Origin: Betaproteobacteria bacterium Ga0077526
GTDB taxonomy: Bacteria > Pseudomonadota > Gammaproteobacteria > Burkholderiales > Ga0077523
DNA length: 64,000 nt
Direction of reading: 5' to 3'
Assembly: GCA_001464765.1 (NCBI GenBank)
Contig: LNDV01000034.1
Location: 904,671-968,670 of the forward strand
Part shown: one piece after another, positions 10,154 through 63,871 of the stretch
How positions within the stretch are numbered: position 1 is the stretch's first letter
Layout of the letters: each line of letters starts with the position of its first letter
Translations under genes and position numbers: made by a program
The notes under the pieces: generated by a model
What the model was told of the DNA's origin: nothing
Seen by the model: only the letters and a program-made list of their open reading frames with translations
The model's database searches: none

Positions 10154-11298
10154 CGCCGGTGGCACCTGGGGCCTGGCTGGGCCTGCTGGGTGGCGGACAA
10201 CTCGGCCGCATGTTTTCGATGGCGGCGCAGAGCATGGGCTACCGAGTTGTCGTCGTGGACCCCGGTGGCGAGAGCCCGGCCGGGTCCGTGGCGGACGACC
10301 ATCTCCAGGCGGACTATCTGGACGAGGGCGCCCTCGGCGAACTCGCGCGGCGCTGCTCCGCCGTGACCACCGAGTTCGAGAACGTGCCGGCGGATGCCCT
10401 GCGCCGTCTCGCGGATCACTGCACGGTAAGCCCGGGCCATCAGGGCGTCGCGGTGGCGCAGGATCGCATCCGTGAAAAGCGCTTCCTGGTCGAGGCCGGC
10501 CTCGGGACGGCGCCGTTCGCCGTGATCGAGCACGAATCCGAACTCGCGCGCATCGACGAGTCGCTCCTCCCCGGCATCCTCAAGATCGCGCGACTGGGCT
10601 ATGACGGAAAGGGACAGGTCTCGGTCACCTCGCGCGAAGGGGTGCTCCAGGCCTTCCGGGACATGGGGTCCAAGCCCTGCGTCCTTGAAAAGCGGCTGAA
10701 GCTCGATCTCGAAGTGTCCGTGGTGGTTGCCCGTGGGTTCGATGGCGCGACGACCACTTTTCCTGTCGCGGAGAACCAGCACGCGAACGGCATTCTCGAC
10801 GTCAGCATCGTGCCCGCACGCATCCCGGCGGCCCTCGCACAGGAAGCCCGTGCAAAGGCCGTGCGGGTGGCCGAGGCCCTCGACTACCGGGGTGTGCTCT
10901 GCGTGGAATTCTTCGTCGTCGACGGCGGACGACTGCTTGCCAACGAGATCGCGCCGCGTCCGCACAACAGCGGCCACTACAGCATCGATGCCTGTTTCAG
11001 TTCCCAGTTCGAGCAGCAGGCGCGCATCATGTGCCGCCAGCCGCTGGGCGACACTGCGCTGAATTGTCCCGTAGTTATGGTGAATCTGCTCGGCGATCTC
11101 TGGCGTGACGGCGAACCCGACTGGAGCCAGGTGCTGCGCCATCCCAGGGCGAAGCTGCATCTCTACGGCAAGCGCGAGGCCCGGCCCGGTCGCAAGATGG
11201 GCCACTTCACGGTGCTGGCCGATTCTGTCGAGGAAGCTCTCGCGACCGCCACCGCCATCAAGTCCGCTCTTTCCCCGACGCCGCGTCCCGCGTCCTGA
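10150..11298 (+). CDS. purK: N5-carboxyaminoimidazole ribonucleotide synthase
   Basis: ATP-grasp protein ([32 protein letters not shown]), directly after purE. Confidence 0.9.
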
Positions 11299-11322
11299 CC
11301 GCTTTCCGGATTGCTCCCCAAG

Positions 11323-12216
11323 ATGACCGCCACCTCTCCCGCCGCCGTCCTCGAAACGAACCTGCGTTCCCTCAAGTTCCTGCATCGGGGCAAGGTGCGT
11401 GACATCTATGAGATCGACGCGGATCGCCTGCTGATCATTCAGACGGATCGCCTTTCGGCCTTCGACGTGATTCTCCCGACCCCCATACCGGGCAAAGGCG
11501 CCGTGCTGACCGAGATGTCGAACTTCTGGTTCGCGCGGCTGAAGCACGTGATTCCGAACCACCTGCTCGACGCCGATCCCGAGAGCTTCGTCTCGCCGGA
11601 TGAACGCGATCAGGTCCACGGACGGGCGTTCGTCGTGCGACGGCTGGCGCCGTTGCCGCTCGAGGCCATCGTGCGCGGTTATGTGGCCGGCTCGGGCTGG
11701 AAGGACTACCGCAGCACCGGCGCCATCTGTGGCATTGCTCTGCCGCCCGGTCTCCAGGAAGCGCAGCAGTTGCCCGAGCCGCTGTTCACACCCTCGACGA
11801 AGGCGCCCAAGGGCACACACGACGAGAACATCCCCTACTCCGAAGCCGAGCGGCTGCTCGGCGCGCCGATGGCCGCGAAGGTTCGGGACGCCGCGATCCG
11901 CCTCTATCGCGAAGCCGCGGAGTACGCCGGAGGGCGCGGCATCATCATCGCGGACACCAAGTTCGAGTTCGGCACCGATGCGGCGGGCTCGCTCTATCTG
12001 ATCGACGAAGCGCTCACGCCCGATTCCTCCCGCTTCTGGCCCCGGTCGGAGTATCGGATCGGCATCAGTCCGCCTTCCTTCGACAAGCAGTTCGTGCGGG
12101 ACTGGCTCGAATCCATGGCCTGGAACAAGCAACCGCCGGCTCCCTCCCTGCCGCCGGATGTCGCCGAGAAAACTGGCGCGAAGTATCGTGAGGCGTTGCG
12201 TCTTCTGACCGGCTGA
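11323..12216 (+). CDS. purC: SAICAR synthase
   Basis: [23 protein letters not shown] and [11 protein letters not shown] motifs. ATG 11323 preferred over the TTG at 11311 listed in the track. Confidence 0.9.
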
Positions 12217-53909: not shown

Positions 53910-54998
53910 ATGGCCTTGCTCGAAATTCGGAACGTGACCCGCCGATTCGGCGACTTCGTCGCTGTCGATGGCGTCAGCCTGTCCATCGGGGCGGGAGAGT
54001 TCTTCACGCTCCTCGGCCCCTCGGGCTGCGGCAAGACCACGCTCCTGCGCATGATCGCCGGGTTCGACGCCCCGGACGGCGGCGCAATCCTGCTCGACGG
54101 GCAGGACATGACCGGCGTGCCGCCCGAGGCGCGCGACATCCACACCGTGTTCCAGAGCTACGCTCTGTTTCCGCACATGACCGTGGCGGACAACATCGCG
54201 TTCCCCCTGCGCATGGCCAAGTGCCCGCCCGGCGAGATCCCCGCCCGCGTGGAGGAAGCCCTGGACGATGTCTCGCTGCCCGGCATGGGCAAGCGCTTCC
54301 CCAACGAGCTGTCCGGCGGACAGCGCCAGCGGGTTGCCGTGGCGCGCGCGCTCATCAACCGGCCCAAGCTGCTGCTGCTCGATGAGCCCCTGGCCGCGCT
54401 GGACGCCAAGCTACGCGAGCGCATGCAGCTGGAGCTCATCACGCTCCAGAAGGAAATCGGGATCACCTTCGTCTACGTGACGCACGACCAGGAAGAGGCG
54501 CTGGCGCTCTCCCATCGCATCGCCGTCATGAACAAGGGCAAGGTGGAGCAGCTCGACGAGCCCGCGAAGATCTACGGCTTTCCCAAGAACCGCTTCGTCG
54601 CGGACTTCATCGGGGAATGCAACCTGTTCGATTGCACGGTCGCGGCCCATGACGCGGGCGGGCTCGATCTCGCCATCGAGGGGCTCGGAAAGGTCCGCAG
54701 TGCCGGCGCCGAGAACGTGGTCCAGGGGGCGAAGGGGACGCTGGCGCTGCGCCCCGAGAAGGTGGCCATCGGCCGTGAGCTCAATGCCGCCGACTGCGTG
54801 AACCGGTTCCACGGCAAGGTGTTCGACTACCTGTACACCGGCGATGTCACGCTCTACATCGTCGAGGTCGAGGGCGGTCAGCGGGTGGAGGTGATGCTGC
54901 CCAACAATGCCGTGGGCCGCTCCTCGAAGTTCTTCGAGCCGGGCGACGCCGTGCAGATCGGCTGGCGTGACGACGCCGGCCACTACCTCCATGACTGA
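53910..54998 (+). CDS. potA: Polyamine ABC transporter ATPase
   Basis: Walker A GPSGCGKTT, signature LSGGQRQRVAVAR, Walker B LLLLDEPL, and a C-terminal TOBE-like domain. Confidence 0.9.
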   Translation: MALLEIRNVTRRFGDFVAVDGVSLSIGAGEFFTLLGPSGCGKTTLLRMIAGFDAPDGGAILLDGQDMTGVPPEARDIHTVFQSYALFPHMTVADNIAFPLRMAKCPPGEIPARVEEALDDVSLPGMGKRFPNELSGGQRQRVAVARALINRPKLLLLDEPLAALDAKLRERMQLELITLQKEIGITFVYVTHDQEEALALSHRIAVMNKGKVEQLDEPAKIYGFPKNRFVADFIGECNLFDCTVAAHDAGGLDLAIEGLGKVRSAGAENVVQGAKGTLALRPEKVAIGRELNAADCVNRFHGKVFDYLYTGDVTLYIVEVEGGQRVEVMLPNNAVGRSSKFFEPGDAVQIGWRDDAGHYLHD

Positions 54999-55034
54999 CC
55001 ACGACGGACCCGCCGCCGCCGGAGACAGGCCCGG

Positions 55035-55916
55035 ATGAACGCACGCGCCCAGAAGTGGCTGGTGAGCGGTCCCCCGCTCGTCTACCTGCTGTTCTTCTTC
55101 GCGATTCCGACGCTCATCATGGTGGTGGCGTCGTTCCGCTTCCCGGGCGACTACGATCCTCTCGCGCCGATCTTCGGCACCGGCAACCCTGACGAGGTCG
55201 CGGGCCTCACGCTGGAGAGCTACCAGCGCTTCTTCGCCGACCCGATCTACCTCGAGCTGTTCCTCAAGTCCTTCCTGTACGCGACGGCCACCACCTTACT
55301 GTGCCTGCTGCTCGCGTATCCGCTGGCCCTGATGATCGCGCGCAGTCCCAAGCGCTACCGCGACATCCTCGTGCTGCTCGTGATCCTGCCGTTCTGGAGC
55401 AACTTCCTCATCCGCGTGTACGCCTGGATGATCATCCTTGGCGAGCAGTCGGTGTTCGCGAAAGGCTTCAACGGGTTCCTGGGCCTGTTCGGGCTCGACC
55501 CCATGCCGCTGCTGTTCACCCCGCTCGCGGTGCTGATCGGTCTGGTGTACGTGCACCTGCCGTTCATGGTGCTGCCGCTCTACGCCAACCTCGAAAAGCA
55601 CGACCCCGCCCTGCTCGACGCCGCGCAGGACCTCGGCGCGCCGGCGTGGCAGCGGTTCTGGCGGATCACCTTCCCGCTGTCGCTGCCGGGCGTTTACGCG
55701 GGCGCGGCGCTGGTGTTCATTCCTGCGCTCGGCATCTTCGCCATTCCGGATCTGCTCGGCGGTACCGACGGCATTCTCATCGGCAACCTCATCAAGCAGC
55801 AGTTCCTGGAAGCGCGCGACTGGCCGTTCGGCGGCGTGCTCTCGATGGTCCTGACGGCTGCCGCGATCGGTTTCGCCGGCATCGCCGCCTGGTTCGCGCG
55901 GCGCCAGAGGGTCTGA
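55035..55916 (+). CDS. potB: Polyamine ABC transporter permease
   Basis: Six-TM permease with an EAA-type loop (DAAQDLGAPAWQRFWRITFPLSLPG). Confidence 0.85.
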   Translation: MNARAQKWLVSGPPLVYLLFFFAIPTLIMVVASFRFPGDYDPLAPIFGTGNPDEVAGLTLESYQRFFADPIYLELFLKSFLYATATTLLCLLLAYPLALMIARSPKRYRDILVLLVILPFWSNFLIRVYAWMIILGEQSVFAKGFNGFLGLFGLDPMPLLFTPLAVLIGLVYVHLPFMVLPLYANLEKHDPALLDAAQDLGAPAWQRFWRITFPLSLPGVYAGAALVFIPALGIFAIPDLLGGTDGILIGNLIKQQFLEARDWPFGGVLSMVLTAAAIGFAGIAAWFARRQRV

Positions 55917-55917
55917 G

Positions 55918-56691
55918 ATGGCGCGCCGCTCCTGGATTCTGTGGGCAATGGCTGCCTTGGGCTACGCCTTCCTGTACGTGCCCCTCATCATCGTCATCGT
56001 CTATTCCTTCAACGATTCCCGCCTGAATGCCGAGTGGGTCGGGTTCACGTGGCACTGGTACGAGGTGCTCCTGAAAGACGAGCAGATGCTCACGGCAGCC
56101 TGGAACTCCCTCATCATCGGCGTCAGCGCCAGTGCCGTGGCCACCGTTCTGGGCACCATGGCCGGCTACGCGATGTACCGGTTCAAGCTGAGGCTCCTGC
56201 CCGTGCTGGTGCTGATGCCGATCGCGATTCCGGAAATCCTGATGGGCGTGAGTCTGCTTATCTTCTTCGTGATGCTGAACGTCACGCTGGGCATGCTGTC
56301 CATCACGCTGGCGCACATCGCGTTCTGCATCGGCTTCGTGGCCATCGTCGTGCGGTCGAGGCTGACCGGCATGGACGAGAGCCTCACCGAGGCGGCCCGG
56401 GACCTCGGTGCGACCCACTGGCAGGCCTTCCGCCTGATCACCCTGCCGCTAATCATGCCGGGGATCATCGCCGGCGCGCTGATGGCCTTCACCCTGTCGA
56501 TCGACGATTTCGTCATCACCTTCTTCACCGCAGGCGTGGATGCGACCACCCTGCCGCTCCAGATCTACTCGATGATCAAGATTGCCGTCACGCCGGAGGT
56601 CAACGCGGTGTCCACGTTGCTGATGCTGGTCACGTTGATACTGATCGTCATCGCCAGTCGCCTATCGCCCGGGGCGCTGCGCGGAGAATAA
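55918..56691 (+). CDS. potC: Polyamine ABC transporter permease
   Basis: EAA loop EAARDLGATHWQAFRLITLPLIMPG. Starts 2 nt after the potB stop. Confidence 0.85.
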   Translation: MARRSWILWAMAALGYAFLYVPLIIVIVYSFNDSRLNAEWVGFTWHWYEVLLKDEQMLTAAWNSLIIGVSASAVATVLGTMAGYAMYRFKLRLLPVLVLMPIAIPEILMGVSLLIFFVMLNVTLGMLSITLAHIAFCIGFVAIVVRSRLTGMDESLTEAARDLGATHWQAFRLITLPLIMPGIIAGALMAFTLSIDDFVITFFTAGVDATTLPLQIYSMIKIAVTPEVNAVSTLLMLVTLILIVIASRLSPGALRGE

Positions 56692-56739
56692 GGGCGAACG
56701 CACCATGCGCCATTCCCATCCTGCTCAGGGGACACCTCG

Positions 56740-57804
56740 ATGAAAAAGCTTCTCGCTCTGCTCGCACTGCTCGTGGCGGTGCCGGCGTTCGCCCAGAAGG
56801 GCGACGTCCTGCATCTGTACAACTGGAACAACTACATGTCCGAGGAGACCATCAAACGGTTCGAGGGCGTGTGCAAGTGCAAGGTCAAGCAGACCTACTA
56901 CTCCGACAACGACGAGCTCATCGCCAAGCTCCAGGCGGGCGGAAAGGGCTACGACGTCATGGTGCCCACCATGAACGCGGTCGAGGCGCTCATCAAGATG
57001 AACGCTCTCCTGCCGCTCGACACCTCCAAGCTGCCCAACCTGAAGAACGTGATGCCGCTGTATGCGAATACCGCCTTCGACCCGGGCAACAAGTACTCGG
57101 TCCCCTACGCCATGACCATCACCCTGATCGGCTACAACGACGCCAAGATCAAGGAACTGGGCGTGCCCGTGGACTCCTGGGCCACGATCTTCGACCCGGC
57201 GATCCTCGCCAAGATCAAGGGCAAGGTCACCGTGCTGGACAGCCAGCGCGAAGTGATGGGCGCCGCCCTCAAGTACCTCGGCTACTCCGTGAACGACACG
57301 GACGACAAGCACCTGCAGGAAGCCAAGGAGGTCATCCTTAAGGCCAAGCCCTTCTGGGCCGCGTTCAACGGTTCCAGCTACATCAAGGAACTCACCCTCG
57401 GCAATATCTGGGTTGTGCACGGCTACTCGAACGACATCTTCCAGGCTGATCTCGATGCCCAGGCTGCCAAGCGCAAGTTCCGCGTGCTGCACGCGCTCCC
57501 GAAGGAAGGCGCCGTCCTCGCCCTGGATTCCATGGTGATCCACAAGAGCGCGCCTCGGCCCGACCTCGCCCACATGTTCATCAACTTCATGCTCGACGGA
57601 AAGAACTCCGCCGACCTGACGAACATGATCGGCTCGGGCAACCCCAACACCGATGCGCAGCAGTACATCAAGCCCGAGATCAAGCAGGTCAAGGCGGTGT
57701 TCCCCGACGCCGCGGCTGCGAAGACGCTGGAGATGCTGAAGGACTTCAACAGCAAGCAGCGCCGCTCGGTCAACAAGATCTGGACCGAGATCAAGGTGAA
57801 ATAG
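56740..57804 (+). CDS. potD: Polyamine (spermidine/putrescine) periplasmic binding protein
   Basis: Signal peptide MKKLLALLALLVAVPAFA, then LHLYNWNNYMSEETIKRFE, typical of PotD/PotF. Confidence 0.85.
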   Translation: MKKLLALLALLVAVPAFAQKGDVLHLYNWNNYMSEETIKRFEGVCKCKVKQTYYSDNDELIAKLQAGGKGYDVMVPTMNAVEALIKMNALLPLDTSKLPNLKNVMPLYANTAFDPGNKYSVPYAMTITLIGYNDAKIKELGVPVDSWATIFDPAILAKIKGKVTVLDSQREVMGAALKYLGYSVNDTDDKHLQEAKEVILKAKPFWAAFNGSSYIKELTLGNIWVVHGYSNDIFQADLDAQAAKRKFRVLHALPKEGAVLALDSMVIHKSAPRPDLAHMFINFMLDGKNSADLTNMIGSGNPNTDAQQYIKPEIKQVKAVFPDAAAAKTLEMLKDFNSKQRRSVNKIWTEIKVK

Positions 57805-57872: not shown

Positions 57873-58400
57873 CTACTGCTCCAGTATTCCGTTCCACTCC
57901 TCGGAGAAGGTCCCGTCCGCATTGGACGTCCCCGTCCACACGCCTCCCCCGGCGATGCCTGCGAACGGCCCCGTGCCCGTGCCCGGCACGACGAACCACC
58001 CGCCGCTGCAGTAGCTCAGAGGCTTCCCGTCGGCCTGCCCGACCGGATAGCAGACCCCGGTCCATTCGACGAGTACCGCGCCGCCGCCTTTCTCCGTACG
58101 CGCGAAACCCTGCCCCGTGCCGTACCCGTTTGCCATGTCCCAACGCGACGTAGCGGTCCGGGTGGAGTCATTCCACAGTCCCTTGCCTCGCACTTCCTTG
58201 TCGACCGCGCGGCTCTGGCCGAAGAACACGAGGCGTCCGGTCTTCTCGTCCTTGCCGATCACTTCGAACTTCTCGTTCTTGTGGATGGCTTTCACCGCAA
58301 TCTGGTAGGGCTGACCCGCATGAGCCGGCAGTGCGACGAACGCCAGACCAGCTGCAGTGCTCACCAGAACTGAGGACAGAAACGGATGGTGCGTGCGCAT
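57873..58400 (-). CDS. Hypothetical secreted protein
   Basis: Signal peptide ...AAGLAFVALPAHA and SD ggagaa before ATG 58400. Gly-rich C-terminal half, two Cys. No family recognised. Confidence 0.55.
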   Translation of the reverse strand: MRTHHPFLSSVLVSTAAGLAFVALPAHAGQPYQIAVKAIHKNEKFEVIGKDEKTGRLVFFGQSRAVDKEVRGKGLWNDSTRTATSRWDMANGYGTGQGFARTEKGGGAVLVEWTGVCYPVGQADGKPLSYCSGGWFVVPGTGTGPFAGIAGGGVWTGTSNADGTFSEEWNGILEQ

Positions 58401-58588
58401 GGGATTCTCCATTGGAATTATCGGATGACGGATGTCTTGTGTGCACCGACGCCCGGAAGCCGGTGAGTGCCTCCGGGCCCTGATGCCCGTCGATGGGAGA
58501 ACGCGGGACCCGGACGCGAGCGGCGTCGGTGCTCCGCAAAGATAGGCTCGGAGCGCCTACCGATTGGGTACTGATTCGATCCGCGGCG

Positions 58589-61500
58589 TCAGGCGTCGCG
58601 CCTCGATGTCTGACGAACACGCATGAGGCTGCGATGGAGGTCGTCGCGCGTGTCGTCGATCTGGAGCGCGCGCTCGTACCAGAGTCGGGCTTCCTCCGGA
58701 TGGCCGTCGCGCTCCCGACACCGCGCGTGCAGTTCGAAGACGGTAGTGACGGTCTGAGCGATTCGTCGCCTCGCCGACAGTACCCATGTGTCGCTCTGGT
58801 CGTCGGGGAAGAGCGCTCCGTGATAGAGAGCGGCGACGCGATCGGCCTGATCGTTCGACGGGGAGGCGCGCAGGTGGTGGTTCAGCGCACCGACGTCTGT
58901 CCACACGAGTTCCGGATTGAGCCGCACGCGCCCGCCGAGAAGTTCGACCGCGTCATGACTCCCCAGCAGGGCTCGCAGCCGGTGCAAGGCCGAAGCCAGG
59001 GATTTGTGGGCGGCGTCCGCCTCCTCGTCGGGCCAGAGATGGTCGGCCAGATCGTGCTCTGCGACATAGGCGGTTCCGCGCGCGATCAGGGCGCGGAGCA
59101 GTTCCAGAGGCCGACGAGGCATCTTGCGGCCGAAGCTGGGCGGTTCGTCGTTCACGATCACGCGGAACGTGCCGAGCCCGTACACGCGCACGCGCCAGGG
59201 CCACGCGTCGGAGAAACCGTCCATGGGTTTCCAGCCGAACTCGCGGATCAGCATCCGGATATAGGGGGCCTCGACGCCGGCGCTCAGCCCCCATTCGCAG
59301 AAACGTGGCATCCATGGCTTGAGCCAGGACAGGAACCGACCATGATCCTGCCGTGCCGCGACCCGCCACAACGTCTGCACGATGTGCCGGGCACCGGCTT
59401 CGTCGCCGACGAGTTCCCGCATTCTTGCCTCCGCCGCGAGGAAGAGCGGTTCGAAGCAGTCGATCGCGGTACCCGATACCGCAGCCCGCTGTTCCGCAAT
59501 GACCGCGTCGGCCTCGCCGAACTCCCGACTCTCCACGAGCCCGAACACCAGCGGAATGCCGTAGTGGATTCGATACGACGGTGCGGCCAGGGATCGCGCG
59601 GTGCCCATGGCCAACTGCCCGTGCAGCTTCGCCCCGGCTGGATCGTTTCGATACAAGGACAGCCAAGCGGAACAGGCTGCCAGCAGCGCGCGTTGCAATT
59701 GGCGGGAGGGATCGGCCAGCGCTGCTGCCTCCCTCTCCCATTGCCCGGCCGTCTTCAGATCGCCATGGGAGGATTCGAGCCCGCTGCAGAAATAGGCCGC
59801 GAGGAACCGGATCTGCCCGAAGCCTTCGCGCGTGGCGATCTCCCACGCTTCACTCACCGCGACGGCGCCTGCTTCGTAGCGGCCGAGCAGGCGCATCAGG
59901 TACGTTTTCCAGAGCAGCCAGTTCGCCCGCGCGTGCGGGGTGACGGCAGGATGGTCGGCAAGCCGGTCTCCGTGCGCAGCGAGCAGCGGCGCCAGTTCGA
60001 AATGCCCCGTGAAGGTCGCGTAGATGGTGAGGAACACTGTGGACAGGAGCCGGCGATTTGCCGACGCTTCCCCCACGAGGAGCGCGAGCGTGGCCTGCGC
60101 CGTATGCGCCAGTTCCGGGTCGCGCGGCGAGGCGAACAGCCGGGCGACCAGCATGGCCGCATGCATACGCAGCCGAAGCTCGGGGTCCAGCGCGGCAGGC
60201 GGGTCACGCTCGAAGTCTTCGAGTACCGCGATCCAGGGCATCATGGCCCGGTGATCCGTCGTGGAATGGAAGATGACCTCGATCAGCGCAGATGCCGCGC
60301 GGATGCTTCCGAGCGGTTCCGCGCGGGTGCGATGTGCTTCGTACGCCGCGGTGAGTTGGCGGATCGCCAGGGTCGGGTCATCACCTGCCGCCATCGTGCC
60401 CAGCGCGTACTGCACATCCGGAGCCGAATCGGCGAGCGCTTCCGGCAGCGCCGCAATCCAGCGGCGCAGCAGCGCGTAGCGTCCCTGCTCCAGCCGGGCC
60501 ACCAGAACCGAGGAGAACACGGCCAGGGCTTCCTCCCACGCCTGGATGCTCAAGAAGAGATCCACCGCTTCGTCGAACATGGCGTACGCAGCACAGACGG
60601 CGGCCGCGCGCCGCTGCATCCCGCCCCACTCTTCGGGTGACCAGAGATCGCGGGCCCGCACGGTCAGGAATTCGCGGAACAGCGCGTGCAGGTGGAAGCT
60701 GCCGTCGCGTCCGACGGACCGATGGAGAAAGAACTGGCGCCGAAAGAACTGCTGCAAGAGTTCGGGGGCCTGCGGGTCGCCCGTGAGTGCCTCGGCCATG
60801 GGGCCGTCCACGTGGCTGAGGCAGGCGATCTGGGTGAGAAACCGTTGTTCCTGCCGCGACATGCCGTCGAACACCTGGTCCGCGAGGAAAGCGAACACCT
60901 GTTCCGAGCCCGGGACATCTGCGCCACGGCGAGGCGTTTCACCGTCGGCAACCGCCTGCAGCATCAGTGTGAGGCCGGCCGCCCACCCGGCCGAGCGTTC
61001 GAAGAGGTCCCGAACCGACCGCTCGTCGACCTGCCGCCTCGTTGCCGCAATTGCCGTCGCTTCTTCCAGTGTCAGGCGCAGTGAGTCGGCCCCGAGTGTG
61101 TGAAGCTGATCCCGCGAGCGGGCATGCGCGAACGCGTCTGGGAGTTCGTGCCGGGAAATGATTACGACGCTAACCCCGGGCGGCACCTCGTCCAGCGCCA
61201 GGGCGACGATGCTCGAGATCGTTGTCCCGTCGCCCGCGTCCTGGAAGTTGTCCAGCACGACCGCGGCGTCCGCAGGCAGGATCGCGAACAGACTGCGGAA
61301 GAATCGGCGAGCGAATCGCGGGACATCCGCCCGGTACTCCGGTGTCAGGACGGGCGGCAAACGATCGTCCGAGTCGGCGAAGGAGCGGCAGGCTTCCCGC
61401 AGATAGTGGAAGAAGGTGGCCGGCTCGGCGTCGTCCCGGTCGACACGAAACCAGATGCCCGCGAGCTCTCGAGCATCGAGCCAGGACGCTACGAGCGTGG

Positions 61501-61639
61501 TCTTGCCGGCGCCAGCCGGCGCGATAAGGGCGATTGCACCATGTGCCGCACGTGCCTCATCCAGCTTCGTGAAGAGGCGAGCCCTCGGAACTGGAAGCAT
61601 GAGTCGGGGACGGGTGACTTTGGCGAGGGGCCGTTGCAT
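58589..61639 (-). CDS. MalT-type STAND ATPase fused to a C-terminal SARP module (OmpR-type wHTH + BTAD)
   Basis: N-terminus is collinear with MalT as I recall it: VTRPRLMLPVPRARLFTKL, Walker A APAGAGKTTLVASW, Walker B AVVLDNFQD, and SAGWAAGLTLMLQ. Long helical middle. C-terminus RVRVYGLGTFRVIVNDEPP...PLELLRALI...RVRLNPELVWTDV, then BTAD-like ...WYERALQIDDTRDDLHRSLM. ATG 61639 chosen within track ORF 58589..62083. Confidence 0.8.
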   Translation of the reverse strand: MQRPLAKVTRPRLMLPVPRARLFTKLDEARAAHGAIALIAPAGAGKTTLVASWLDARELAGIWFRVDRDDAEPATFFHYLREACRSFADSDDRLPPVLTPEYRADVPRFARRFFRSLFAILPADAAVVLDNFQDAGDGTTISSIVALALDEVPPGVSVVIISRHELPDAFAHARSRDQLHTLGADSLRLTLEEATAIAATRRQVDERSVRDLFERSAGWAAGLTLMLQAVADGETPRRGADVPGSEQVFAFLADQVFDGMSRQEQRFLTQIACLSHVDGPMAEALTGDPQAPELLQQFFRRQFFLHRSVGRDGSFHLHALFREFLTVRARDLWSPEEWGGMQRRAAAVCAAYAMFDEAVDLFLSIQAWEEALAVFSSVLVARLEQGRYALLRRWIAALPEALADSAPDVQYALGTMAAGDDPTLAIRQLTAAYEAHRTRAEPLGSIRAASALIEVIFHSTTDHRAMMPWIAVLEDFERDPPAALDPELRLRMHAAMLVARLFASPRDPELAHTAQATLALLVGEASANRRLLSTVFLTIYATFTGHFELAPLLAAHGDRLADHPAVTPHARANWLLWKTYLMRLLGRYEAGAVAVSEAWEIATREGFGQIRFLAAYFCSGLESSHGDLKTAGQWEREAAALADPSRQLQRALLAACSAWLSLYRNDPAGAKLHGQLAMGTARSLAAPSYRIHYGIPLVFGLVESREFGEADAVIAEQRAAVSGTAIDCFEPLFLAAEARMRELVGDEAGARHIVQTLWRVAARQDHGRFLSWLKPWMPRFCEWGLSAGVEAPYIRMLIREFGWKPMDGFSDAWPWRVRVYGLGTFRVIVNDEPPSFGRKMPRRPLELLRALIARGTAYVAEHDLADHLWPDEEADAAHKSLASALHRLRALLGSHDAVELLGGRVRLNPELVWTDVGALNHHLRASPSNDQADRVAALYHGALFPDDQSDTWVLSARRRIAQTVTTVFELHARCRERDGHPEEARLWYERALQIDDTRDDLHRSLMRVRQTSRRDA

Positions 61640-61747
61640 GCGTTTGGACCGAGTCGGACTGGGCGCGGACACCAATGCTACTCGCTGCGACGGAACGCCA
61701 AGGCGCACCGGAGGTACCCGGTCGCGGCGCCCGACGTTGCCATGGCC

Positions 61748-61764
61748 TGCGACAATCTGTCGCA
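61748..61764. promoter_or_regulatory. Palindrome TGCGACA-atc-TGTCGCA in the regulator/receptor divergent spacer
   Basis: Perfect 7-bp arms, about 60 nt upstream of the receptor ATG 61823. Confidence 0.3.
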
Positions 61765-61822
61765 CCCCCCTCCCTGGCACACCGCTTAGCATTCGCGCCT
61801 CCCGTCCCCCCAGGCATGCGCC

Positions 61823-63871
61823 ATGACAACAACACCGGACCGAGCCTGCCTGCTGCTCGCCGCGCTGCTGGTTGCTTCCCCGACCATCACCGAATCTGCC
61901 GACACATCGGCAGCCGGAACGACAGCGACCGGACCCGCGCTTGTCGTCGGCCAGCCCGTGGTCGTTCGTGGCAATGCCACCGGTGTGCTCTCGGCCAGGG
62001 ATGTGCTGACTTCCGTCGACGTGCTGAGCGGCTCGGTCGTGGCGCGCGAGAACGTCGCCAACAGCTGGGAGCTGTTCGGGCATCTACCGGGCACCATGCT
62101 CACCGAGTTCCGCCAGGGCACCACGTCGGGCAAGTTCTCGTTCCGCGGCTTCAACGGCGAAGGCGAGATCAATGCCGTGAAGCTGCTGATCGACGGCATT
62201 CCCAGCAACAGCAACGACGGCAACATGCCGTACATCGATGCGATCTTCCCGCTCGACATCGCATCGATCGAGGCGGTCCGCGGCACGAACGATGCGCGGT
62301 ACGGCCTGCACAACATCGCCGGCAACGCGAACATCGCGACGCGCATCGGCGGTGACTATCTGACGACCCGGGCGAGCTACGGCAGCTTCGCGTCGCGCGA
62401 TGCGCAGTTCGCCGCTGGGATGGAGAACGGCGGCTGGTCGCAGAACTACTTCGTCGGCTATCGGAAGTCCCAGGGCTACCGCGACCATGCCGAGGCCGAG
62501 AAGGCATCGTTTGCGGGCAAGTGGTTCTACGGGCCGGAGGAAGGGCGATATCGCGTCGGTCTGATTGCCCGGCATTACTACATCGATGCCGAAGAGCCCG
62601 GCTATCTGACGGCCCGCGATTCCCGCACCGATCCCACGCGGTCCTACGCTTTCTCTGCCACGGATGGCGGCGAGAGGGAGGTGAACCAGCTCAGCGCGCA
62701 CCTCGATGCAGACCTGGGCAACCGGCTGTCGCTCACCACCAAGGCATACCTGAACCGGTTCGACGATCAGCGCTGGGTGAAATTCTCGGCGGGCGTGTCC
62801 CAGCAGGAGCGCGACACCAACGAATCGCACCAGGGCATCCTCTCCACGCTGACCTACCGGGCGGCCTCGACCTCGACCGGCAGTTTCTCCCTGCAGGCCG
62901 GGTTCAACTACGAGCGCCAGCAGAACACCAGCCTCCGCTTCAACACGAACCAGCGGATCCGCCAGACCCAGACGCGGGCCCAGGACTTCGACTTCGACAA
63001 TGTCGGGGTGTATGTCCAGGGCGTCTTCGAGCCCACCCGGCAGATCAAAGTGATTCCCGCGTATCGCGTGGACAAGGTCTTCGGCGATTTCACCAACGGG
63101 CTAACCGGGCGGACCTTCGCGGTCAACGACTACGGACTCATTCAGCAGCCGAAGCTGAGCGTGGTGTACGCGCCGCTCGACACCATGAGCTTCTACGGCA
63201 ACTGGGGAAAGTCCTTCCAGGTGGGTGTGGGCGCAGCCGCCTACAAGATCACGCGGGTCGACGACCTGAAGCCCTCCATCAATACCGGCTGGGAGTTCGG
63301 CGTGAAGTTCACGCCGGTGCCATGGCTGGATGGACGCGTGGCGCTCTGGCGGCAAGTGGCAACCGACGAGGCGCGCCGCAAGCTGAACGACCCGTCGAAC
63401 GATTCCGAGAACATCGGTCGTACCCGCCGGCAGGGCATCGATCTTCAATTCAGCGCGCGGCCCACAGACCAGGCGACCCTCTGGGCGGCCTACTCGCGCC
63501 AGTATTCGCGGATCGTCCAGGCGGAGACCTCCCTGCCAGCCAGCCAGGGCAAGGAGATTGATCACGTGCCCCACTACCTCTTCGCGAGCGGGGCGGACTT
63601 CGAGGTCACGCCTGTCCTGCGCGTGTCGGCGTGGGTGAACGCTCAAGGCGATTACTACCTCGAGCGGACCAACTCCACGGGTCGGTTCGGGCGGCACTTC
63701 CTCGTCAACCTCGGCGCGGCGTACAAGGCGGCGAAGGACCTGACGCTGGAGTTCCAGGTGCGCAATGTCACCGACCAGTACTACGAGTATGTGTGGCACG
63801 ATGGCACCCAGTCGCTCCACTCGCCGGGCGACAAGCGTGCGTTCTTCGGAGCCGCCACGCTGAACTTCTGA
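61823..63871 (+). CDS. TonB-dependent outer-membrane receptor
   Basis: Signal peptide. Plug motifs FSFRGFNGEGEINAVKLLIDGIP and IEAVRGTNDARYG. C-terminal ...FFGAATLNF. 682 aa. Confidence 0.85.
   Translation: MTTTPDRACLLLAALLVASPTITESADTSAAGTTATGPALVVGQPVVVRGNATGVLSARDVLTSVDVLSGSVVARENVANSWELFGHLPGTMLTEFRQGTTSGKFSFRGFNGEGEINAVKLLIDGIPSNSNDGNMPYIDAIFPLDIASIEAVRGTNDARYGLHNIAGNANIATRIGGDYLTTRASYGSFASRDAQFAAGMENGGWSQNYFVGYRKSQGYRDHAEAEKASFAGKWFYGPEEGRYRVGLIARHYYIDAEEPGYLTARDSRTDPTRSYAFSATDGGEREVNQLSAHLDADLGNRLSLTTKAYLNRFDDQRWVKFSAGVSQQERDTNESHQGILSTLTYRAASTSTGSFSLQAGFNYERQQNTSLRFNTNQRIRQTQTRAQDFDFDNVGVYVQGVFEPTRQIKVIPAYRVDKVFGDFTNGLTGRTFAVNDYGLIQQPKLSVVYAPLDTMSFYGNWGKSFQVGVGAAAYKITRVDDLKPSINTGWEFGVKFTPVPWLDGRVALWRQVATDEARRKLNDPSNDSENIGRTRRQGIDLQFSARPTDQATLWAAYSRQYSRIVQAETSLPASQGKEIDHVPHYLFASGADFEVTPVLRVSAWVNAQGDYYLERTNSTGRFGRHFLVNLGAAYKAAKDLTLEFQVRNVTDQYYEYVWHDGTQSLHSPGDKRAFFGAATLNF

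Follow-up and report, generated by a model that had tools for sequence, protein, structure and literature searches.

Here we report on a 64-kb stretch of DNA from Betaproteobacteria bacterium Ga0077526 (contig LNDV01000034.1, positions 904,671 to 968,670; hereafter the window) and on a regulator gene within it, which occupies positions 58589..61639 (including the TGA stop codon at 58589-58591) and encodes a protein of 1016 amino acids. The protein combines a MalT-type nucleotide-binding/oligomerisation domain (NOD), a helical sensor and a C-terminal SARP module, and we estimate a probability of roughly two in three that it is a cytoplasmic STAND transcription factor acting via direct repeats on the neighbouring gene of a small secreted barrel protein (57873..58400, 175 amino acids). 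This barrel gene is probably the target of the regulator, and the only local one, as suggested by a perfect operator-like sequence upstream of it and by the conserved linkage of both genes; the initial annotation of the region had already listed the secreted protein as a candidate target. Unless stated otherwise, the features of the window described below are located on the minus strand.

The DNA-binding part of the regulator is predicted at its C-terminus. Residues ~813-914 (58898..59203) correspond to an OmpR-type winged helix-turn-helix (wHTH) with the recognition helix at 874-892, as assigned from Trans_reg_C, the match of the family profile to AfsR and EmbR and the AlphaFold2 model, and are followed by a truncated BTAD domain of five helices (residues 915-1016; 58592..58897), which covers positions 27-110 of the 146 positions of the Pfam BTAD profile. 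In the regulator alone, both Pfam matches stayed slightly below the cut-offs, with 20.9 bits for Trans_reg_C at residues 842-895 (gathering cut-off 26.2 bits) and 22.0 bits for BTAD at residues 930-1013 (cut-off 22.1 bits). The full-length homologues, to which the regulator aligns unbroken, passed them, reaching 68-79 bits for BTAD and up to 28.9 bits for Trans_reg_C. Moreover, the family profile matched residues 28-264 of AfsR, i.e., its SARP domain (E 5.5e-16), as well as EmbR (E 4e-11), and in the modelled C-terminus a small beta-sheet precedes three helices, a wing and, finally, the five helices. Foldseek listed no SARP structures for the full-length model, its matches being dominated by the NOD and the repeats. 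The end of the recognition helix, R887-L888-R889, is invariant across the homologues, which fits the conserved half-site of the operator described below.

This C-terminal location of wHTH and BTAD was proposed in the initial annotation and is borne out by the domain searches, including the order of the two domains, while the BTAD domain itself turned out to be incomplete. The regulator and its relatives of 97 and 87% identity stop about 45 residues short of all other homologues (1050-1070 amino acids), so that five of the seven BTAD helices are present and the protein ends, by alignment mapping, at the equivalent of about residue 231 of AfsR. The complete seven-helix domain is thus absent from the window regulator and present in the wider family. 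A C-terminal end of BTAD hidden by a frameshift was considered and rejected, since none of the three downstream frames contains a remnant and the 87% relative shares this end.

The N-terminal part closely resembles MalT, as had been noticed from the motifs in the initial annotation. Residues 9-403 (60431..61615), which comprise the NOD with its winged-helix subdomain, matched the NCBIfam MalT model (PRK04841) with E 2.3e-42 and 145 bits; this match is confined to the N-terminal 40% and lies far below the equivalog cut-off of 537 bits. In the PDB, MalT (8bob) was matched by residues 6-359 with E 8e-21, improving to E 7e-49 when a profile of 46 family sequences was used, and precomputed annotations assign WHD_MalT (PF25873) to the homologues. 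The Walker A motif or P-loop APAGAGKT (residues 41-48; 61496..61519) has G43, G45, K46 and T47 invariant in 46 homologues, and the same holds for D130-N131 of the Walker B motif VVLDNF (residues 126-131; 61247..61264). The D-N pair aligns with D-D in MalT ("LVIDDYH"), which suggests that ATP is bound and that its hydrolysis may be altered or slow.

Downstream of the NOD, a helical-repeat region similar to TPR proteins and to domain III of MalT (residues 404-801; 59237..60430) was assigned as the putative sensor from AlphaFold2, Foldseek and the family profile. The full-length model, computed with the family alignment, reached a mean predicted local distance difference test score (pLDDT) of 88.8 and a predicted template modelling score of 0.71, and its residues ~335-801 are all-helical with a pLDDT above 90, in agreement with the helical middle part described from the sequence initially. 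In the Foldseek search, the repeats superimposed on domain III of MalT (1hz4) with a template modelling score (TM) of 0.70 and also matched the archaeal STAND sensor PH0952 (6mfv; family profile E 2e-10). The regulator therefore unites in a single polypeptide the features that define a STAND protein: a P-loop NOD that contains Walker A and B motifs, a subdomain of the winged-helix type and, C-terminal to them, a repeat sensor. Pfam searches gave no GerE/LuxR helix-turn-helix (HTH) in the regulator at E<=1, consistent with the replacement of this domain of MalT, and no nuclease, protease or other effector domain; instead of NB-ARC, for which there was no hit, WHD_MalT and AAA_16 were observed.

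Positions 58558..58576 hold the predicted operator, AATCAGTA-ccc-AATCGGTA, a tandem direct repeat with a period of 11 bp, which begins 13 nt past the stop codon of the regulator gene and reads AATCAGTAcccAATCGGTA in the window (58576..58558). It represents a family-wide element of the form ATCnGTA-N4-ATCnGTA, which usually begins no more than a few tens of bases past the regulator's own stop codon and is followed, after 13 nt, by a -10-like hexamer (TAnnnT; xAxxxT in the counts below). The window site is perfect (12/12) and the sole match in the 64 kb at <=2 mismatches (0.03 expected); no second site with at least 10 of the 12 core positions is present in the window, where shuffled sequences average 1.4. 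At 13 nt past the second repeat core, the hexamer TATCTT (58539..58544) could serve as -10 element. The corresponding -35 position reads CCAATC and is located within the second repeat, and the repeats would cover roughly -45 to -24. With its -35 position taken by a repeat, the promoter looks activator-dependent and is of the SARP/PhoB type.

Support for this element comes from the related loci. An 8-mer repeated at 11 bp (<=1 mismatch) occurs within 150 nt of the stop codon in 13 of 29 loci, in comparison to 0-5 loci for spacings of 7-10 and 12-15 bp and 5.9% of random 150-nt windows. In 418 kb of loci, gathered by regulator homology alone, 18 sites with at least 11 of 12 matches were counted, versus 0.75 in shuffles (maximum 4), and xAxxxT at +13 accompanies 13 of these 18 sites versus 0.04 in shuffles. 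The operator is also found in loci reached independently via the small protein described below, and in a plasmid locus (L041). Genes located behind the sites encode a mini protein or a signal-peptide protein, form a barrel-regulator operon (L008, L021), or represent the regulator gene itself (L003, L035). The proposal of the initial annotation that the protein reads direct-repeat sites agrees with the presence of this conserved 11-bp-spaced repeat beside the gene across the family. SARP target promoters are characterised by direct repeats spaced 11 bp (or 22 bp) apart near the -10 element, a feature that the predicted site shares at the level of sequence.

The barrel protein carries a predicted signal peptide (...ALPAHA|GQ) and two invariant cysteines. 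An ATG further upstream at 58412 would extend it to 179 amino acids; a GGAGA ribosome-binding site favours the start at 58400. No significant match was obtained in Pfam or NCBIfam, the score for DUF3224 (PF11528) being 13.7 bits versus a cut-off of 25, and the whole barrel family comprises 7 clusters among 5.8 billion sequences. AlphaFold2, run with an alignment of 8 sequences, returned an 8-stranded antiparallel beta-barrel (pLDDT 85.9), for which Foldseek listed the DUF3224 structures 2q03 (E 2e-6, TM 0.77) and 2ooj on top and, with a probability of ~0.99, the cyclases AbyU/AbmU/Tsn15/PloI4, dirigent proteins and the pyocyanin demethylase PodA. The protein hence models as a DUF3224/dirigent-like (AOC-barrel) fold, with which it also shares a C-terminal GxGxFxG-type motif; in contrast to DUF3224 and dirigent-like proteins, it is secreted, belongs to a tiny orphan family and remains below the Pfam cut-off.

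The linkage of the two genes is conserved. In all 7 other distinct loci recovered for the barrel (L001, L002, L003, L005, L042, L043 and L046, plus the near-duplicate contigs within L043-45 and L046-47), the order on one strand is regulator, optionally a mini gene, and barrel gene, with an open reading frame (ORF) of 60-61 codons often positioned between them. The arrangement of operator and xAxxxT appears at the corresponding place in L002, L003, L005, L042, L043 and L046. The barrel is conserved at 59% identity versus 38% for the neighbouring regulator. Compared with the 97% relative, the ratio of non-synonymous to synonymous differences (pN/pS) is 0.10 for the barrel gene and 0.15 for the regulator gene (81 synonymous and 35 non-synonymous differences), i.e., purifying selection acts on both genes.

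The ORF that comes first in most relatives starts 21-37 nt past the -10 element and encodes a "mini" protein of 60-80 amino acids with the pattern SYIVRIYRR..(n)..G.VE.V..G....F....ELW..L. Such genes were located in L002 (11279-11464), L006 (~11131-11326), L008 (~455-652), L014 (9360-9542), L015 (5954-6157), L031 (5127-5345 and 7249-7443), L043 (610-795) and L046 (2758-2940). Neither the mini protein nor other small neighbours gave anything significant in Pfam or NCBIfam; a profile search for the mini protein yielded 2,097 clusters, all annotated as "hypothetical", and three of three sampled members adjoin a regulator with the WHD_MalT...BTAD architecture, with unannotated proteins of 160-190 amino acids nearby. 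The window does not contain a mini gene. Its position is occupied by the 138-nt leader (58401..58538), which links the predicted promoter to the barrel gene and in which Rfam identified no RNA element. The leader shows weak similarity to the 5' half of the relatives' mini gene, the alignment having a gap or deletion of ~130 nt, and may thus be a decayed mini remnant. Judged from its sequence, the window regulator is a reduced member of the family, devoid of BTAD helices 6-7 and of a mini gene at its locus. A coupling of mini loss with BTAD truncation was considered and rejected, as the first L003 regulator has a complete BTAD and no mini gene.

Based on MalT and AfsR, the regulator could work as follows. 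The MalT-like P-loop NOD and the sensor of ~400 residues would control the C-terminal SARP-type DNA-binding and activation module: a ligand at the sensor together with ATP would open or multimerise the protein, and thereby free or pair the winged helices. With one wHTH module sitting on each of the two repeats, both on the same side of the DNA, RNA polymerase could then be recruited in a class-II manner, similar to PhoB or AfsR, at a promoter lacking a -35 element. Signal gating and oligomerisation, which were also anticipated in the initial annotation, are drawn by analogy from the two model regulators. For SARPs, binding to 11-bp repeats that overlap the -35 element, and ATP's relief of NOD/TPR inhibition, have precedents (PMC10936776).

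Several points weigh against this proposal, which for every family member builds on sequence and models. As seen in structures of AfsR with RNA polymerase, L243, E246, L247, V249 and R252 of AfsR make up the pocket that receives sigma region 4, and R240, D245, E246, D250 and L263 contact the C-terminal domain of the polymerase alpha subunit (alpha-CTD) (PMC10936776). The window regulator does not possess equivalents of AfsR residues ~232-270, which contain both surfaces, and activation may consequently be weak, use other contacts, or not occur. In addition, 12-13 nt separate the end of the repeat core from the -10 element, versus 8 bp between repeat and -10 in classical SARP promoters, so that the geometry differs from that of AfsR. 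The -10 hexamer was assigned solely by its conserved distance, and the transcription start is a candidate one. The D-N Walker B motif, in place of D-D, may also affect the ATP cycle. Finally, a consensus scan of the leader revealed a sigma-70-like match, TGCACA-17-GATAAT (58417..58445), which is a possible basal promoter of the barrel gene and could drive it independently of the regulator.

In an alternative view, the regulator is crippled or repurposed without BTAD helices 6-7, binding the repeats without recruiting polymerase, so that it would repress or occlude the -35 region or be inert, with the barrel gene being transcribed from the sigma-70-like leader promoter. The truncation, which removes the AfsR-equivalent residues contacting sigma region 4 and the alpha-CTD, would be in line with this view, as would the loss of the mini gene and the promoter match at 58445-58417. 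On the other hand, the 97 and 87% relatives have retained the truncated form and terminate at an identical position, the pN/pS of 0.15 refers to the whole gene, the operator is perfect and its -10 element intact. PhoB-type wHTH activators, furthermore, function without a BTAD domain, and the leader promoter is a consensus match whose -10 element reads GATAAC, and not GATAAT, in the closest (97%) relative. We thus regard a loss of the activating function as unlikely and favour an activator of the barrel gene. Much less probable is that the repeats serve another factor of the OmpR/PhoB family as a Pho-box-like element and lie beside the regulator gene incidentally. Many kinds of wHTH proteins bind 11-bp tandem repeats, and the half-site (A)TCTGTA of some loci resembles the PhoB half-site CTGTCAT; the loci, however, span several phyla and were gathered only by homology to the regulator or the small protein, the site is more than 20-fold enriched in them at a fixed position with respect to the stop codon of the regulator gene, and the window contains a single copy. 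That explanation is therefore very improbable.

A wider regulon would include the gene of a TonB-dependent receptor of the siderophore-receptor type (61823-63871, plus strand; below the subfamily cut-off), which is divergent from the regulator gene and could be controlled from the 183-bp spacer (61640-61822), for instance as an uptake system for the ligand. The initial annotation had named this receptor as a second candidate target, and it adjoins the regulator in the 97% relative, too. Its promoter, however, features no operator site, as the window holds no further operator-like sequence at the threshold given above, and a receptor beside the regulator was found neither in L002, L003, L005, L042 and L046 nor in 35 genome loci, which renders its control by the regulator quite improbable. 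On the other side, the barrel gene is convergent with a polyamine ABC transporter operon of the PotA/PotF type (53910-57804, plus strand), and in the other genomes examined this transporter is not linked to the regulator; for the receptor, the same applies apart from the 97% relative. An antiviral or conflict STAND protein similar to Avs, in which the C-terminal domain would act as effector rather than as transcription module, comes to mind because Avs3 is among the Foldseek matches of NOD and repeats. Yet PADLOC matched 0 families, nuclease, protease and other effector domains are lacking, and the C-terminus is predicted to bind DNA through a wHTH, whose recognition helix is conserved and which has a conserved operator of its own, making this assignment extremely improbable. 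Altogether, we retain the proposal of a STAND transcription factor with the barrel gene as its local target.

Regarding the extent of the regulator gene, the longest possible ORF extends to 62083 and overlaps the divergent receptor gene. The start at 61639 (MQRPLAKVTRPRL) agrees with the family consensus opening "..LAKLTRPRL.."; the homologues of 97 and 87% identity are annotated with 1003 amino acids, which implies a start 13 codons downstream. Such a later start removes the conserved N-terminal motif "LAKVTRPRL" common to MalT (window positions 61600-61639). We preferred 61639 because of its better fit to the family consensus.

In comparison to described regulators, the protein shares with MalT and the LAL family the N-terminal P-loop NOD and MalT-type winged-helix subdomain, which can be aligned motif by motif over ~400 residues, the following sensor similar to domain III, and by analogy the expected logic in which ligand, maltotriose in the case of MalT, and ATP lead to an active multimer. 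In contrast to E. coli MalT and LAL proteins, it ends in wHTH and BTAD instead of a LuxR/GerE HTH, contains D-N in place of D-D in Walker B and would read a tandem direct repeat replacing the -35 element, not MalT boxes. A similar mixture emerges for AfsR and other large SARPs of Streptomyces. Here, the likeness consists in a STAND protein joining an NOD and a TPR-like sensor to a SARP module, in a target promoter immediately 3' of the regulator gene with two 11-bp direct repeats overlapping -35, and in a protein of ~60 amino acids as first target in most relatives, which parallels the order afsR to afsS. The mini protein itself is presumably unrelated to AfsS with its repeats. Unlike in AfsR, the SARP module is C-terminal (residues ~813-1016 of 1016) and the domain order reversed, the NOD is of the MalT type and not NB-ARC (AP-ATPase), BTAD helices 6-7 are missing in the window regulator, and the hosts are Gram-negative and mostly uncultured. 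No biosynthetic cluster was found near the regulator loci, which thus differ from the actinomycete hosts and metabolite clusters characteristic of SARPs.

PhoB/OmpR-type activators place two wHTH domains on two 11-bp-spaced direct repeats, which stand in for the -35 element and lie ~10 bp ahead of the -10 element. This geometry is nearer to the window promoter than that of AfsR; however, the regulator lacks a receiver domain and phosphorylation, being under the predicted control of a STAND ATPase, and its wHTH is followed by a BTAD domain. The closest described domain composition is that of the SARP-LAL proteins PimR, FilR and SanG, which combine a SARP module with an ATPase half of the LAL/guanylate-cyclase type without LuxR HTH (2024 review); this likeness refers to the domain composition. 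Their SARP module is N-terminal, and they belong to actinomycetes, where they regulate polyene or nikkomycin biosynthesis from within the respective gene clusters (2024 review). In fact, the SARP module is N-terminal in every class described in this review, and the order NOD, sensor, wHTH and BTAD is the reverse of all of them, in line with the permuted architecture put forward in the initial annotation.

This architecture is by no means restricted to the window. In a word-indexed search, 826 proteins reached E<=1e-5, and the 120 that scored best are all full-length (94-100% coverage, mostly 1050-1070 amino acids) and contain BTAD and WHD_MalT, in addition to Trans_reg_C and AAA_16. Where given, their names are "BTAD domain-containing putative transcriptional regulator" (NCBI), "SARP family activator" or "LuxR family MalT". 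An exhaustive phmmer search, in which residues 404-1016 were used as query (sensor and SARP module, with the MalT-like NOD left out), recovered 1,297 proteins at E<=1e-30, each representing a cluster at 50% identity and nearly all stemming from uncultured Proteobacteria, Nitrospira and Spirochaetia; among them, the 150 highest-ranking ones align end to end at ~405-1015 of proteins of ~1050-1070 amino acids or of fragments thereof. The literature search retrieved no characterised family member and only actinomycete SARP papers as relevant, SARPs being described as "exclusively" actinomycete. Among known sequences, the architecture is not unusual: as upwards of 1,000 clusters formed at 50% identity have it, the C-terminal-SARP architecture appears from sequence to be widespread yet undescribed, i.e., uncharacterised rather than rare.

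The sampled loci belong to Burkholderiales, Acidiferrobacterales, Competibacter, Aquisalimonas, delta-proteobacterial lineages, Nitrospira and Spirochaetia, and nearly all sampled carriers are metagenome-assembled genomes (MAGs), with Noviherbaspirillum aerium 122213-3 (L035) and Caldimonas sp. KR1-144 (L036) as two cultured representatives. A single distant match was obtained from the plasmid collection, namely L041 on the Neorhizobium petrolearium plasmid NZ_CP123001.1 (517516-520419), which is 26% identical to the regulator and annotated as several "hypothetical protein" pieces. An operator-like site (10-11/12) is situated at the 3' end of this relative, ahead of a hypothetical gene for 149 amino acids.

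Apart from the barrel, the loci of the wider family contain further cargo downstream, including lactonase-type propeller lipoproteins, DUF5666 proteins, cupin-like proteins and small signal-peptide proteins with a C-terminal G[TS]G.[FY].G motif, the latter being encoded by 17 of 2,369 ORFs, all on the regulator strand. In hhalign comparisons of the window barrel family with three other motif-bearing groups, probabilities of 61% over 33 columns and 34% over 61 columns were obtained for two groups and no match for the third; on the basis of these marginal or negative results, a common origin of the motif-bearing "barrels" is not established, and the fold was modelled for the window group only. 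In L015 (6379-8439) and L026 (9633-11825), a lipoprotein of ~700 amino acids is encoded after operator and mini gene. The L015 protein possesses lactonase-type 7-bladed propeller repeats in Pfam, and the L026 protein resembles it in the N-terminal sequence only. L023 features three perfect operator sites in one 15-kb locus (5818, minus; 9149, plus; 14213, plus), each of which precedes the gene of a signal-peptide protein, one being a DUF5666 protein; these sites imply a local regulon of small size, whose targets lie divergently as well as downstream.

Moreover, a betaproteobacterial MAG contig (L003, 1-13600) comprises an array with fragments of several family regulators, a stand-alone SARP of 347 amino acids, two different small motif-bearing secreted proteins and three operator sites, beside which a guanylate-cyclase-AAA_16-TPR protein of 1046 amino acids is encoded. 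A Burkholderiales MAG with two family members (L002, L007) harbours a Trans_reg_C and AAA_16 protein of 984 amino acids at L002 2497-5451 (minus), 2.5 kb away.

Taken further, the loci could represent an undescribed and widespread signalling module of environmental Gram-negative bacteria, in which a cytoplasmic MalT-NOD/SARP switch and its operator are combined with the mini protein as partner, ligand or feedback element analogous to AfsS, and with secreted dirigent/DUF3224-like barrels and periplasmic proteins acting on an extracytoplasmic small molecule, the window being a stripped-down derivative. We put this forward tentatively, as a possibility with the balance clearly tilted against it. 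If true, this small molecule would be synthesised, bound or degraded by the secreted proteins.

The family of more than 1,000 clusters in Gram-negative bacteria stands against the view in the literature of SARPs as an actinomycete speciality with an N-terminal DNA-binding module. Here, a MalT-type switch would use the SARP module as its output at the C-terminus, together with an operator that can be predicted and a local target that is defined. With a predicted site, a target gene and cultured carriers, the system may open a large number of "hypothetical" regulators to experiment, as well as two linked orphan families, the mini protein and the secreted barrels. In this context, it could also serve as a natural test of how a STAND ATPase gates a SARP domain located at the opposite end of the polypeptide from that in AfsR.

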